Below are positions 36,601 through 41,698 of a DNA stretch of 41,698 nucleotides, piece after piece. A program made the position numbers. Source of the DNA: an uncultured Planctomycetales bacterium (lineage in GTDB: Bacteria; Omnitrophota; Gorgyraeia; Gygaellales; Profunditerraquicolaceae). How positions within the stretch are numbered: position 1 is the stretch's first letter; each line of letters opens with the position of its first letter. The stretch covers positions 1 to 41,698 of the forward strand of contig CAZAPM010000007.1 of the NCBI GenBank assembly GCA_964487475.1. Reading direction: 5' to 3'.

Positions 36601-39600
36601 CCCTTCCGGAGGCGGTCAAGATGCTGCGCGGCAAGCCCGGGGATCCCGTGACGGTGACGGTACTGCGGGAATCGGTGAAGAAGGTCATGGATTTCAAGCT
36701 GGTCCGGGGGATCATCACCATCACCGATATCAAGGAGGCGCGGATCCTCGAGGACGGCATCGGGTATATCCGCATCGTCGAGTTCCGGGAGGATACGGAC
36801 AAGAATCTCATCTCTTCCCTGGAAAAGCTGCAGGGACAGGGGATGCAGGCGCTGGTGTTGGATCTGCGCAATAACCCCGGCGGTCTGCTCGACAGCGCGG
36901 TGAACTGCGCGGACGAGTTCGTGGAGAACGGAAAGGTCATCGTCTCCACCAAGGGGCGAAAGAAGGACCAGGATACGGAGTTCCTGGCCAAGAACCCCAA
37001 GCCGATGCTGACGTTGCCCATGGTGGTGCTGATCAACGAAGGATCGGCATCCGGAAGCGAGATCGTGGCCGGCTGCCTGCAGGATTACAAGCGGGCGGTG
37101 ATCATCGGGAATAAATCCTTCGGCAAGGGGTCGGTCCAGACCGTGATCCCGCTCGCGGACGGTTCGGGGCTACGTCTGACCACCAGCAAATATTATACTC
37201 CGTTAGGCCGGGAGATCCACGGCAAGGGGGTAGAGCCGGATATCGAGGTTCCCGTGCCCGACGTTTCCGAGGATGACGCGAAGGATAAGAATAAGGATGA
37301 GGCGGCGCTGAGCATCGAAGAGGTGTTCGATCAGGTGGATGTTCCCGCCGATCCCGCGAAACCAAACGCGGTAAAGGAAGCGTACGATTATAAAAAGGAC
37401 GTGCAAGTGGTCAGGGCGCTCGATGTGCTTAAGGCGCTGCGAATCGTAGGCGCGGCGAGGACGGAACCCAAGCGATGAAACAAAGTACGGGAGGCTACAG
37501 AGGGATCATCGCGCTGTTGGCAGTGATCGTGGTGCTGCAGTGGGTGATCATGTTTACCGGAAAGCAGCAGCCTGCCCGCAAGGTCAAGCCTGCGGCGAAG
37601 CGCCCGGTTGCGGCTAAAAAAACGGTGAAGGCCTTCGTGCCTGCGCCGCCTCCCGCACCCGCGGTGACCGTTCCCGCGGTCGTGCCTCCGGTAGCGCCGG
37701 TAGTATCCGGGTCCAAGGGGTATATCGCCATCGTGCTCGATGACTGGGGGTATAATCTCAACAATATGCAGGAGCTGGAGCAGATCCAGGCTCCGATCAC
37801 CCTGGCGGTGCTGCCGAACCTGCCGTATTCCGAGATCGTGGCTGCCCGGGCACATGCTTCCGGCAAAGAGGTCATCTTGCATCTGCCGATGGAGCCGTAT
37901 GAGCGGCTGCACTGGGAACGCAACACCGTGCTGACCACCATGGATCCCGCGCAGATACGGGCGATCCTCTCTGCCGACCTGGATGATCTTAAATTCGCGA
38001 AGGGCGTGTCCAACCACCAGGGGTCGAAAGCGACCGGTGACGATAAGGTGATGACCGTGCTGATGAAGGAATTGCGGCGCCGCCGGCTTTATTTCCTGGA
38101 CAGTTACGTGACCTCGAAATCCGTGGCCGCGGCCAAGGCGTCCCTGGAGCGTGTCCCCAGCATTCCCCGGGATGTCTTCCTGGACAACCAGAGCGATCCG
38201 CAGTATATCCGCGGACAGGTGAATAAGCTCAAAAAGAAGGCGGCGCTTTCCGGCCGGGCAGTGGGGATAGGCCATGACCGGGTGAACACGCTGCTGGTGC
38301 TCAAAGAGATGGTCCCGGAGATGATCGCCGAGGGATACGAGATACTTCCCGTGTCGGCGCTGATCGCCAGGCCTAAGGCCGGGGAAGGAAGGAAACAGTG
38401 ATGTTCGTGCTGGGGATCGAGACCTCCTGTGATGAGACCTCCGCGTCCATCGTGGCGGACGGCCGCAAGGTGCTTTCCAACGTCACGGTATCCAGCGTGC
38501 GGCAGCACCGCAAGTACGGGGGGGTGATCCCGGAGATCGCTTTCCGCATGCAGCTCGAGACGATCGCGCAGGTGACCGAAGCGGCGATCGAGGAGGCGGG
38601 CATCCGCAAGCCGCAGATCGGGCTGGTGTGCGTCACGCAGACCCCCGGGCTGCTGGGTTCCCTCCTGGTGGGGGTGAGCTTCGCCCAGGCGCTGGGCCAG
38701 TCGCTGGAGGTGCCGGTGCTGGGCGTGAACCATATCCTCAGCCATATCTATGCCGGTTATCTGCAGGATAAGGCGCTGCGACTGCCTTTTGCCGGCCTGA
38801 TCGTCTCCGGCGGGCATACCAGCCTGTATGCGGTGAAGGATTTCGACCGTATCGAACTGCTCGGCTCGACCCAGGATGACGCCTGCGGGGAATCCTTCGA
38901 TAAGGTCGCCAAGATCATCGGCCTGGGATATCCCGGAGGCCCGGAAGTGGAGAAAGCCGCGCGGCAGGGGGATCGCCGGGCGTACCGTTTCTCCTGTTCC
39001 AACACCGCCAGGCCATTTGATTTCAGCTACAGCGGTATCAAGACCGCGGTGCTTTATCACGTGCGCAAGGCAACGCGCAACGGCGCCAGGAAATTGAGCC
39101 GGAAGGAAGTATGCGATATCGCGGCATCCTTCCAGGAAAATGCCCTCGAGGTCCTGGTGGCTAAGTCGGTGGCTGCCTGCCGGGCTACGCGCCTGCGTTC
39201 CCTGGTGGTAGGAGGAGGCGTTGCGGCGAACAACCGGCTGCGGGAGATGGCGCAGGAGCGCTGCCAGGAGGAGGGGATCAAGGTCTATTTCCCTTCCAAA
39301 CCCCTGTGTATGGATAATGCGGCCATGGTGGCGGGTTTCGGGTATCAATTGTTCAAAAAGGGTGCGACTGCGGGTATTCTGAAAGCCGTATCGTAAAGGA
39401 GGGGGCATGAGCGATAAGGAAATCGCGCTGCGGTTGGTGTTGTCGGCATTGTTGGGCGGGCTCATCGGGTTAGAGCGCCAAATGGTAAGGAGAAATGCCG
39501 GCTTGCGTACGCACATGCTGGTGTCTTTAGGCTCCTGCCTTATCATGTTGACATCGATGTATGTTTTTGATATATATAGCTCTAAAGTAGCGATGGACCC

Positions 39601-41698
39601 CAGCAGGATCGCCGCCGGGGTGATCACGGGCATCGGTTTCCTGGGTGCAGGCGCGATCATGAAGGAGGGGGTGGACAGGGTGATGGGCCTGACTACCGCT
39701 GCCAGCCTTTGGGTGGTGGCCGCGATCGGCCTGGCCGTAGGATGCGGTTTTACCAGCGCGGCGCTCCTGACCACGGTATTGACGCTGGTGGTACTGTTCT
39801 TTTTGAGGTATTTTGAAGCGCTATGCTTCGATAAGCGCGAATGTCGGAAGGGGGGCGAGGAGGATGGCATTTAACAGCAGGAAGAAGGACGAGGAGCGGG
39901 TACTGGATGTCGATGCCTCCATGCAGGGGTCCATGGTATTCAAAGAGCCGGTCAACCTGCGGATCAACGGCAAGTTCGACGGCACTCTGGAGACCAAGGG
40001 TAACCTGACCATCGGGCCTTCCGCCCTGGTGACGGCAGATATCACCGGCGATAATATTATCGTCGGAGGCAAGGTCAAGGGCAAGATCTCCGCGCGCCAG
40101 CGCCTGACGCTTCTGCCGACCGCGTCGGTCGAGGGGGATATCTTTCCCGCGCGGTTGAACATCGCCGAAGGCGCGGTGCTGGAAGGCCGTTGTTCGATGC
40201 TCCATGATTTTTTCAATATCGATGAGGTGGCCCGGTATCTGGAAGTGGACGTGAAGTCCGTTTCGGAGTGGGCCGCGGCCGGGAAGATCCCCTGCCAGAA
40301 GGAAGGGGAAGTGTTCAGGTTCGACCGCCGGGCGGTCGATAACTGGATCGCCTCAGGGGAAGTGGCCAAACGATAAGGATGGATACCTGCAATGGCTGTT
40401 GAAAAACTGCTTACCATACGGGAAGTATCCCAGGTGCTGGGAGTCTCCGAGCGCGAGGTCATCGACTTCGCGGAGTCAGGGGTGCTGCCTGCCTACAAGG
40501 TGGGCGGAGTGTACCTCCGTTTCAAGAGGCTCGAGGTGGAAGAGTACCGCAAAAAGCACCGGCCTTCCGCGCATAAGGCCGCGGCCGCGCACGCCTATCC
40601 TATGGGCGAGCGCATAAGCGATTTTTTCTATTTCAACGATTTTTATATCCTGGCGGCGCTCCTGGTCATCCTGATGGCCTGGTTCATCGTGCGGGGATAA
40701 CGCATGCCTGCGCGACGCGCGTATGCCGATATCGGGTGCGCGAAGCTCGATACGGACCGCTGCCGGCGCCGGGGTTATGCCGAGGCGGTGTTCTGCCAGG
40801 GTAAATCCCGCCCGCATCTTTCCAAAATAGTCGGAGAGTTGCTTTGTCATTCGCAGGACCCGATCCTGACCAGGCTGGACGCGCCGACGTACCGCTGGCT
40901 GAAGAGGAAGTTCCCTTCCCTGCGTTATCATGCGTTGGCGCGTATCGGGTATGTTTCCAAGGCCCGCGCCGCGGCAGAGGGCAAGATCGTGGTGATCACC
41001 GCAGGGACCAGCGACATTCCCGTTGCGGAGGAGGCCGCGGTCACCCTTGAGATCATGGGTCAGAAGGCCGAGCGCATCTATGACGTAGGAGTGGCGGGAG
41101 TGCACAGGCTTTTTGCCAGTCTGGAGCGGATACGCGAGGCCAGAGTGGTGATCGTGGTGGCCGGGATGGAGGGAGCGCTGGCTTCCCTGGTGAGCGGCCT
41201 GGTGCAGGTCCCGGTGATCGCGGTGCCGACCAGCGTAGGATATGGCGCGAGTTTCGGAGGGCTGGCCGCGTTACTGACGATGCTTAACGGCTGCTCCCCG
41301 GGCGTGACGGTGGTCAATATCGATAACGGTTTTGGCGCCGGGTACAGCGCGGCGTTGATGAATCCTCCTGCGCTCCGGGGCAGGCGGTAAGCATGTTCTT
41401 TTCCGTGCTATTGACGGGGATATTGGCGGCGGGGGTGTGGCTGCGCCTCATGATGCTTCGGATGCCTTACTGGTATGATGAGGCGATCACGGTGTATGCC
41501 ATCAATCTCCCCTGGGACCGGCTGTTGCTGCATCTTTCGGGCACGCGGGATATCCTTTCGCCGTTCGCCTTGCTTATGTACCGGTTGCTGCTGCATCTGG
41601 GAGTGCCGGTCGAACTGTTCAGGGTGGTCAACGTCGCTCTGGGCGCAGCATCGTTATATGTGGGATACCGTATCGTCGCGCGGGCGTACAGCCGGGCG

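Follow-up and report, generated by a model that had tools for sequence, protein, structure and literature searches.

A bactofilin–winged helix fusion and a predicted membrane-anchored HTH protein form a conserved gene pair in Omnitrophota

Introduction

Canonical bactofilins, such as BacA of C. crescentus (2N3D) and TtBac of T. thermophilus (6RIA), carry a basic N-terminal tail and a hydrophobic residue at the polymerisation site (F130 in BacA, F105 in TtBac), and a membrane protein partner, exemplified by the client PbpC, is a recurring theme. In Caulobacter, a membrane-bound client can substitute for the N-terminal bactofilin anchor, according to the available text of PMC12448750. In B. subtilis, the HTH protein BacR (YhbD, DUF4004) is encoded beside the bactofilins BacE/BacF and contacts them near the membrane (PMC13649987, available text). 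The M. xanthus BacNOP–PadC–ParABS system and B. subtilis RacA employ a bactofilin scaffold and a MerR-like HTH, respectively, for positioning. HTH domains are also known as binders of cytoskeletal proteins, of FtsZ in SepH (PMC7968930) and of MreB in RodZ (PMC2637339), and by analogy these cases would be precedents for a similar use of the two winged helices described here.

Among BldC/Xis-type winged helices, BldC requires Arg30, R30A abolishing DNA binding, and also uses Thr27, Thr29, Lys33 and His46 (PMC5859096). BldC domains dimerize head to tail, with F21/V23/W31 packed on L11'/I40'/T42'/L43'/G44', and the G44E substitution abolishes binding (PMC5859096). A fusion of such a domain to a bactofilin was not described in the listed titles and abstract openings of the literature on bactofilin with Omnitrophota, HTH or BldC-type domains, subscription papers and supplements being outside the scope of that search.

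Domain organisation of the gene pair

The window, a 41,698-nucleotide stretch of an Omnitrophota contig, encodes the following features around its only bactofilin gene:

38398..39396, + strand: tsaD, last gene of a housekeeping string
39407..39874, + strand: MgtC/SapB-family membrane protein, short form, 155 aa; own-class neighbour, outside the core pair
39864..40376, + strand: bactofilin–HTH fusion, 170 aa
39900-40193, + strand: bactofilin β-helix of the fusion (PF04519)
40212-40355, + strand: HTH_17 winged helix of the fusion, recognition helix and wing both acidic
40392..40700, + strand: HTH-TM protein, 102 aa
40407-40559, + strand: HTH_17 winged helix of HTH-TM (PF12728), with near-invariant hydrophobic wing
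about 40602-40634, + strand: aromatic helix of HTH-TM, after a variable linker
about 40638-40694, + strand: predicted C-terminal membrane helix of HTH-TM, no periplasmic part
40704..41390, + strand: larB (nickel pincer cofactor), variable downstream neighbour, outside the pair

The initial annotation had described an excisionase/MerR-type HTH at the C-terminus of the sole bactofilin of the genome, and both points hold: PF04519 (aa 13–110, 87 bits against a cut-off of 27.9, profile positions 2–97 of 98) and PF12728 (aa 117–164, 39.6 bits against a cut-off of 27) lie in the same ORF, and the genome under study (G000) yields a single PF04519 match. The ATG at 39864, which overlaps the mgtC stop, is the most likely start of the fusion, the TTG at 39813 being disfavoured; homologues are usually 166–169 aa long. 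The resulting N-terminus is a short basic tail of the MAF..RKK type.

AF2 modeled the bactofilin part with a pLDDT of 91–98 over aa 21–110, and hmmsearch linked the fusion to bactofilin at E 4.5e-12. Structure comparison retrieved 2N3D, 6RIA and 6RIB as the best PDB matches (E 2-4e-3), the β-helix being the same as that of BacA (TM-score by target 0.83, rmsd 2.0). L106 of the fusion aligns with the polymerisation site F130/F105, and this position is hydrophobic (L/F/I/V/M) in 198/198 fusions; it is plausible, judging from the fold and these residues, that the domain forms filaments. What sets the protein apart from canonical bactofilins is the HTH_17 domain in the same chain, which shares its fold with the winged helices of BldC, Xis and RdfS (TM-score by target 0.74–0.79).

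The HTH-TM protein matches PF12728 over aa 6–56 (41.4 bits against a cut-off of 27) and adopts the fold of BldC (6AMK; Z 8.3, rmsd 1.2 over 52 residues). The BldC subfamily model NF033787, with its cut-off of 77, was not reached (29.1 and 19.7), and of PF12728 and DUF4004 only the former was found in HTH-TM. Its C-terminal hydrophobic helix is present in 57/58 members and is followed by at most six residues, so the protein has no outside sensor; a membrane link through this predicted helix is plausible. The HTH–linker–membrane helix layout resembles RodZ, but RodZ and SepH represent different classes of HTH; RodZ extends into the periplasm with a domain of its own, and a RodZ-type gene is present separately in the genome. 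Unlike a PbpC-type client, the likely partner of this bactofilin would be a tail-anchored winged helix with neither an enzyme nor a periplasmic part. In contrast to BldC and Xis, the domains here are joined to a putatively polymer-forming fold or to a predicted membrane helix. BacR, in the available text of its report, is a soluble, DNA-binding protein of a separate family, whereas the present pair, which has lost DNA-reading residues, has one HTH in the bactofilin chain and the other joined to a predicted membrane helix.

Distribution and genomic context

The fusion was detected in 136 of 151 phylum genomes, namely 134 at E<=1.6e-37 together with an intact copy in G003 and one in G040 that is interrupted by a run of N, which extends the presence reported earlier for 52/61 genomes. 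All 120 homologues listed possess both PF04519 and PF12728, and 1838 matches were obtained among 1932 candidates (1826 in the earlier count). The HTH-TM gene, previously noted in 10/10 loci, lies directly downstream of the fusion in 212/213 loci, which comprise 198 distinct pairs from all classes sampled; the only exception stops at a contig end.

The proposal of a three-gene unit as a phylum signature did not survive this comparison. The mgtC gene adjoins the pair in 35/41 genomes of the own class and in 0/20 of other classes, and where it occurs in other classes (23/32 genomes) it is always on a different contig from the bactofilin; MgtC was therefore rejected as a core component and is a neighbour at class level only. 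The conserved unit consists of two genes, the fusion and HTH-TM. The MgtC protein itself matches PF02308 at 140 bits and fails to reach the long-form equivalog cut-offs (145 against 214; 90.6 against 255). In the own class, the pair is preceded by the housekeeping string gatC–gatA–gatB–ctpA–divergent polysaccharide deacetylase–tsaD, and the flanking genes are wholly different from class to class.

Upstream of the pair in other classes, TTGACA was seen by eye within 120 nt in 9/20 loci, which suggests that the pair often begins its own transcript there. This motif would also suit a regulatory switch, in which HTH-TM is a tethered transcription factor, or the fused acidic domain a decoy silencing BldC-like regulators on the filament. 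B. subtilis offers a parallel, as BacE/BacF bind BacR, keep it at the membrane and reduce its binding to DNA (PMC13649987, available text), and a domain with a head but without a tail surface could terminate a head-to-tail chain. We nevertheless consider such a switch quite unlikely: inspection of the 20 upstream stretches by eye, without a formal motif search, revealed neither a common repeat nor a common operator, HTH-TM has no outside sensing domain and is not a DUF4004 protein, and the own-class pair lies within a housekeeping string.

A single peptide pattern run over 185,579 species genomes gave 582 confirmed relatives. Titles of the best 80 of the 582 were mostly Omnitrophota/Omnitrophica, with some 'uncultured Planctomycetales' and one Margulisiibacteriota, and five genomes with such titles all contained the HTH-TM gene. 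The titles do not testify to a spread beyond the phylum, the group drawn around the Margulisiibacteriota genome having matched at the same contig positions as the phylum sample. In the atlas clusters of both proteins, Omnitrophota is the commonest taxon. Two weak searches for longer forms returned no longer fused HTH-TM among 8000 candidates of 252–2000 aa and, for the fusion, one singleton bactofilin–thymidylate-kinase chimera without an HTH.

DNA-reading residues

The 198 fusion/HTH-TM pairs were aligned with 30 ordinary HTH_17 controls from the phylum (13 non-redundant); the controls lean to the consensus because they were picked largely by Pfam score, and the counts below are not independent events, since the sequences are related. 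At the Arg30 position the fusions carry D/E in 184/198 and R/K in 6/198, against R/K in 28/30 and D/E in 0/30 controls, and the difference persists after redundancy filtering at 70% (D/E in 39/45 fusions, R/K in 11/13 controls). The recognition helix has a net charge of about -1.8 in the fusions and is positive in 0/198, compared with +2.0 and 29/30 in the controls. Compared with BldC and Xis, the recognition helix is acidic, the Arg30, Thr27/Thr29 and His46 positions are changed, and the fusion wing is acidic as well. The arginine common to RacA and BldC is Glu in the fusion.

The HTH-TM family gives a mixed picture. Its recognition helix is positive in only 14/198, and position 27 holds Ser/Thr in 1/198 and D/E in 148/198, against Ser/Thr in 25/30 controls. 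R/K occupies the Arg30 position in 55/198 overall and in 41/61 proteins of other classes, R43 is invariant, and the wing is basic (net charge +2.9; +2.3 in controls, computed with seven family members still among them).

The earlier suggestion of a link between a cytoskeletal polymer, DNA and the membrane is accordingly kept in part: polymer and membrane are plausible, and DNA through the fusion is unsupported by a helix that is never positive. A DNA link is doubtful; HTH-TM may contact DNA, given its basic wing and the other-class R/K residues. With the DNA-reading residues gone from the fusion's tail, the pair probably fastens the scaffold to the membrane and probably does not hold the chromosome.

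A chromosome tether, a narrower form of the DNA link suggested earlier, is an alternative. Here HTH-TM would grip DNA with its basic wing, alone or capping a chain of ordinary BldC-like proteins, with the bactofilin as its scaffold, comparable to the chromosome positioning by RacA, RocS or BacNOP–PadC in other bacteria. The control-like wing, R43 and the Arg30-position residues of other classes agree with this, as do the persistence of HTH-TM without bactofilin and the presence of HTH_17 genes, small basic ones included, in 61/61 genomes; in G000 such small basic proteins are encoded at C1:77036-77224 and C1:185376-185636. Myxococcus bactofilins organise ParABS (PMC5703909, available text), and G000 has ParB, encoded on a different contig from the bactofilin. 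We regard the tether as unlikely, given that the recognition helix is net negative in both families, the residues at BldC positions 27 and 29 are lost, and the RacA arginine equivalent to Arg30 is missing in the fusion. Moreover, no ParA/ParB-like family or ParB-like adaptor was found in the 27 annotated recurring neighbour clusters from 40 loci, single- and two-member ORF clusters excluded.

Head-to-tail interface

The residues of the BldC dimer interface were compared in the same alignments. Trp at position 31 is present in 188/198 fusions against 3/30 controls, and position 42 is D/E in 179/198 fusions and hydrophobic in 29/30 controls. HTH-TM has Y/F at 40 and I/V/L at 42 each in 197 of 198, G at 44 in 193/198 and R at 48 in 198/198. 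As mapped from sequence only, the fusion has kept the head Trp and acquired an acidic tail surface (179/198), and HTH-TM has strongly kept the tail surface, its head face being like that of the controls and not clearly lost. L126 and V128 of the fusion show the same conservation in controls, which leaves W136 and E127 as the main grounds for a kept head.

We tentatively favour, as a quite possible but by no means assured reading, that the winged helices clip the bactofilin to HTH-TM as a tail-anchored adaptor at the inner membrane, the fusion itself not binding DNA. The proposal draws on the domains, the pairing, the DNA-reading residues and wing surface lost in the fusion, its kept head Trp and the hydrophobic wing of HTH-TM, and is consistent with two genes that stay paired in nearly all loci while their flanks change between classes. 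The head of the fusion (L126, V128, W136, E127) would pack on the HTH-TM wing (L6, Y35, V37, G38, G39) in a BldC-like manner, and since the fusion's own tail surface is lost, it could only cap a head-to-tail chain. The bactofilin part would polymerise, and the complex may be an accessory scaffold with a role in cell shape or in spatial organisation. Such a clip, if true, would be a new mode of bactofilin anchoring, and BldC/Xis-type domains would then clearly have been reused to connect two proteins. At about 600 square angstrom the interface in apo BldC is small, and its formation requires DNA (PMC5859096), which counts against the clip.

Complex prediction of full-length fusion and HTH-TM with 58-row alignments scored 0.20 and 0.12, both below the mark of 0.32, and is uninformative in either direction. 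Mean-field covariation over the 198 pairs (effective about 140) was discarded as noise, the top inter-protein pairs being scattered and some impossible. The fusion HTH and the HTH-TM HTH share 25% identity, and each shares 31–32% with the controls. Tandem duplication of the two HTHs finds no support: in a rough tree built on 49 columns, with an unsettled bootstrap, the two families group apart and controls fall between them.

The N-terminal tails vary with class. An MFSKKKK-like N-terminus, with a hydrophobic residue at positions 2–4 and a basic cluster, occurs in 72/72 close relatives and in 45/55 own-class bactofilins; since it is kept, own-class bactofilins may reach the membrane unaided, a point counted against the clip. 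Bactofilins of other classes have the hydrophobic residue in 1/59 and keep the basic cluster alone, in contrast to canonical bactofilins, and this was counted in favour of the clip.

Bactofilin loss and the absence of FtsZ

Seven genomes of two families, 95–100% complete, cleanly lack the bactofilin (G013, G031, G045, G061, G085, G091 and G107): they give no PF04519 match, and mgtC or tsaD abuts an intact HTH-TM gene. HTH-TM is thus not a dedicated bactofilin anchor and has another job, an observation that weighs against the clip. Since HTH-TM persists where the bactofilin has gone, it is probably the more central of the two and probably has another ligand or associates with itself.

This retention also fits a gene order kept without direct contact, each winged helix binding a third protein such as MreB, the orphan FtsA or another envelope protein, after the example of the HTH domains of RodZ and SepH. 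Candidates are at hand in G000, which encodes MreB, a RodZ-type HTH_25 gene adjoining ftsK, and ftsQ–ftsA without ftsZ, and the two HTH families are less similar to each other than to the controls and separate in the rough tree. We give this explanation a low probability, since two HTH_17 genes that have both lost DNA-reading residues are still side by side throughout the phylum, with all other neighbours changing, and the kept and lost surfaces fit the two sides of the known BldC interface.

The phylum had been described as lacking FtsZ, and no canonical FtsZ was found: the FtsZ GTPase domain was absent from all 151 phylum genomes (0/151), and FtsZ_C occurred in 1/401 genomes, there as a 104-aa fragment. 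A review had placed Omnitrophica among FtsZ-bearing groups from one genome and treats division and shape of FtsZ-less PVC bacteria as an open question (PMC5147048); the absence now extends over 151–401 Omnitrophota genomes. Bactofilin as a substitute for FtsZ is disfavoured by the clean loss in two families, because the seven bactofilin-less genomes belong to the FtsZ-free sample of 151. A bolder proposal starts from a phylum that has lost ftsZ and retained ftsQ–ftsA, and in which two excisionase-type DNA-binding domains have become a head-to-tail plug and socket. HTH-TM, retained more widely than the bactofilin, would mark membrane sites as a core part of FtsZ-free division or nucleoid positioning, and the bactofilin would be an optional chain-capping scaffold; this seems to us rather improbable.

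The dispensability of the bactofilin in two families limits the value of these observations. Both proteins are small, single-copy and near-core, and are open to expression and testing with no need of a culture. The HTH-TM gene, single-copy in 145/151 phylum genomes, could in addition be of use as a marker for the phylum.

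Gene order and spread of the bactofilin module

The bactofilin fusion, a bactofilin domain with a C-terminal winged helix in one ORF, lies in a gatC-to-larB string whose neighbouring genes are separated by a few bases or overlap. Read on the + strand, the string opens with gatC-gatA-gatB, then ctpA, a divergent polysaccharide deacetylase gene and tsaD, and its downstream part comprises:

38398-39396, + strand, tsaD
39407-39874, + strand, mgtC
39864-40376, + strand, fusion, 170 aa
40392-40700, + strand, HTH-TM gene (the partner), 102 aa
40704-41390, + strand, larB

The most probable start codon of the fusion is the ATG at 39864, preceded by a purine-rich stretch. 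A 1074-aa ORF (29137-32361, - strand) diverges from the response regulator-gatCAB string and is putatively glycoside phosphorylase-like, as read from its translation.

Across 151 Omnitrophota genomes, each at least 80% complete, the fusion was detected in 136: 134 matches at E<=1.6e-37, an intact copy in G003 and one interrupted by an N run in G040. The HTH-TM gene was single-copy in 145 of the 151 genomes and directly followed the fusion in 212 of 213 loci, which represent 198 distinct pairs, 79 of them from close relatives. mgtC adjoins the pair in 35 of 41 genomes of the class of the genome studied here and in 77 of 80 close loci, whereas in the other classes it was beside the pair in 0 of 20 loci (flanks of up to 6 kb examined on either side). 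In those loci the next gene after the pair is acpS, ydjC, surE, greA or leuS; 23 of 32 other-class genomes do contain mgtC, each time on a different contig from the bactofilin. Because mgtC adjacency is class-limited while the HTH-TM gene follows in all but one locus, the conserved unit consists of two genes. Thus, of the three-gene phylum signature proposed in the initial annotation, the pairing stands and mgtC drops out. In one locus (L005, genome G073), mgtC is split into pieces of 51 and 82 aa, with the downstream pair intact.

As an indirect check of spread beyond the phylum, one peptide pattern was run over 185,579 genomes and gave 582 confirmed relatives, of which the best 80 were displayed; relatives with named records are mostly Omnitrophota. 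Among the titles and abstract openings returned by a literature search, none describes the fusion; a domain table in supplements could list it. The fusion and HTH-TM gene form a real, near-core and apparently undescribed two-gene module.

Domain architecture of the fusion and its partner

Pfam places PF04519 at residues 13-110 and the HTH_17 domain PF12728 at 117-164 of the fusion, both above cut-off. The AlphaFold2 model (mean pLDDT 85.9) comprises a beta-helix and a winged helix, with BacA, Thermus bactofilin and BldC as closest solved structures. L106 aligns with BacA F130 and Thermus F105 and is hydrophobic in 198/198 fusions; the F130R substitution is described as breaking BacA polymerisation (PMC12448750). 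By domain, fold and polymer residue, the fusion is a bactofilin family member; its bactofilin half looks functional at the sequence level, and filament formation is predicted. It is the sole bactofilin match in its 94.6% complete genome, as initially annotated. In its own class, the N-terminus is similar to the MFSKKKK membrane motif; the hydrophobic N-terminal residue of this motif is absent in 58 of 59 other-class fusions. Such a motif is reported to be replaceable by a membrane-bound client (PMC12448750). BacA-PbpC serves as our working analogy for a membrane client of a bactofilin. Genome G105 encodes an additional bactofilin (L198:1402-1851) that is of the same sequence type but lacks an HTH; it lies near a gene that we take to resemble gas vesicle gvpK.

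In the partner model, a loose linker joins the winged helix to an aromatic helix (71-81), which is followed by the final helix (83-101). A 19-residue window with hydropathy of at least 1.6 occurs in 57 of 58 members, followed by a median of 1 and a maximum of 6 residues. Given this C-terminal position, we predict a tail anchor for the partner and no portion of it outside the membrane. In family f10 (L183, L185, L186, L187, L189, L053), with bactofilin-bearing and bactofilin-free genomes alike, the HTH-TM wing is altered, with His/Asn replacing Tyr/Lys, and the linker carries an extra conserved motif.

DNA-reading positions of the two winged helices

Both HTHs were mapped on BldC by alignment, using the residues named in PMC5859096. 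In BldC, Arg30 and Lys26 read bases, Thr27, Thr29 and Lys33 hold phosphates, His46 enters the minor groove, and R30A abolishes binding (PMC5859096). As controls, 30 other HTH_17 domains of the phylum were used, picked mostly by Pfam score and therefore leaning to the consensus; they carry R/K at position 30 (28/30), S/T at 27 (25/30) and Tyr at 29 (28/30), with a recognition helix charge of +2.0. The fusion has D/E at position 30 in 184/198 and a helix charge of -1.8, positive in 0/198. Both HTHs are PF12728 by fold, yet the fusion fails the DNA-reading test, and these acidic features make binding in the BldC or RacA manner unlikely. The partner has D/E at position 27 in 148/198, S/T in only 1/198, and a helix charge of -1.8, positive in 14/198. 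Here, the case is less clear-cut: the wing carries a basic charge, R43 never varies, and R/K occupies position 30 in 41 of 61 members from other classes. With these basic residues set against the acidic recognition helix, we consider a chromosome tether through the membrane-anchored winged helix unlikely. Of the link between polymer, DNA and membrane suggested earlier, the DNA part is thus not supported for the fusion, while the other ends are plausible predictions from L106 and the partner's tail anchor.

Four long proteins of unassigned origin (P0151, P0154, P0215, P0259) carry 6-8 tandem HTH_17 repeats with acidic-looking recognition helices, and P0151 has a TPR region and a hydrophobic helix as well. 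These proteins hint that HTH_17 modules which do not bind DNA form a broader class. The genome studied here also has two small basic HTH_17 genes (C1:77036-77224 and C1:185376-185636), candidate chain partners, the former overlapping the start of a pilM-like gene that precedes a secretin-like gene (names read from translations).

Conserved surfaces and a possible HTH-HTH contact

In the BldC dimer, F21/V23/W31 of one protomer pack on L11/I40/T42/L43/G44 of the next (PMC5859096). The fusion has Trp at position 31 in 188/198 (3/30 controls), D/E at 22 in 129/135 and D/E at 42 in 179/198, where 29/30 controls are hydrophobic. The partner has Y/F at 40 (197/198), I/V/L at 42 (197/198), Gly at 44 (193/198) and Y/F at 46 (189/198 versus 0/30 controls). 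The fusion therefore retains one of the two faces but not the other; in the partner, the opposite face is strongly conserved. From this residue pattern, we tentatively propose, as the most probable of the readings considered, that the fusion HTH could dock on the membrane-anchored partner HTH by protein-protein contact, its kept face meeting the partner's conserved one as in the BldC head-to-tail dimer. L126 and V128 of the fusion are conserved in controls too. The partner's head face resembles that of controls, so the partner might stack on itself.

The two HTH families share 25% identity with each other, a lower value than each shares with controls, and a rough tree places them apart. This points to independent recruitment, with the DNA-reading residues lost separately in each. 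That each winged helix binds a third protein, with no direct contact between them, seems improbable beside the paired faces; a regulatory switch appears more doubtful still. RodZ-MreB (PMC2637339) and SepH-FtsZ (PMC7968930) provide working analogies of an HTH as cytoskeleton binder, alongside BacR-BacEF (PMC13649987), BacNOP-PadC (PMC5703909) and RdfS, reported to oligomerise head-to-tail without DNA (PMC11963761). PMC11459167, searched for an HTH, yielded none.

Bactofilin loss and the absence of FtsZ

The fusion is missing from 15 of the 151 genomes. Seven of these, two from genus g11 and five from family f10 and all 95-100% complete, have no PF04519 match and carry an intact HTH-TM gene immediately next to mgtC or tsaD. 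Among the others, the HTH-TM gene lies at a contig start in 2, a divergent copy lies elsewhere in 1, and both genes are absent in 5. Close relatives in both families with clean loss still have the fusion, and the HTH-TM wing motif is little changed after it. The bactofilin is therefore dispensable and outlasted by its partner, which must bind a different ligand or function by itself. These losses argue against a simple-anchor role for the partner, and also against the idea that the bactofilin stands in for FtsZ. Chlamydia, which has no FtsZ either, is described as having a bactofilin ring that is separate from the division machinery and sets size and shape (bioRxiv 10.1101/2020.10.19.346502).

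That the phylum lacks FtsZ was borne out in the genomes sampled: the Tubulin/FtsZ domain was found in 0/151 genomes, with 13 of 14 controls positive in the same search. FtsZ_C gave a single match in 401 genomes, a 104-aa FtsZ_C-like fragment; it belongs to an FtsZ/tubulin-like gene that is broken across two frames and lies amid unrelated neighbours (L271:1113-1743, genome G305). A 2016 review noted FtsZ in a single Omnitrophica genome and drew no conclusion for the others (PMC5147048). In the genome studied here, ddl-ftsQ-ftsA runs directly into yggS-like, proC-like and ileS genes (names read from translations), so the missing ftsZ is not due to an assembly gap. This genome does carry MreB and ParB, as well as a RodZ-type gene. 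The same dcw cluster (contig C3, L269:5380-6648) retains ftsQ and a 422-aa ftsA-like gene without ftsZ, and this orphan FtsA in an FtsZ-less phylum merits attention of its own.
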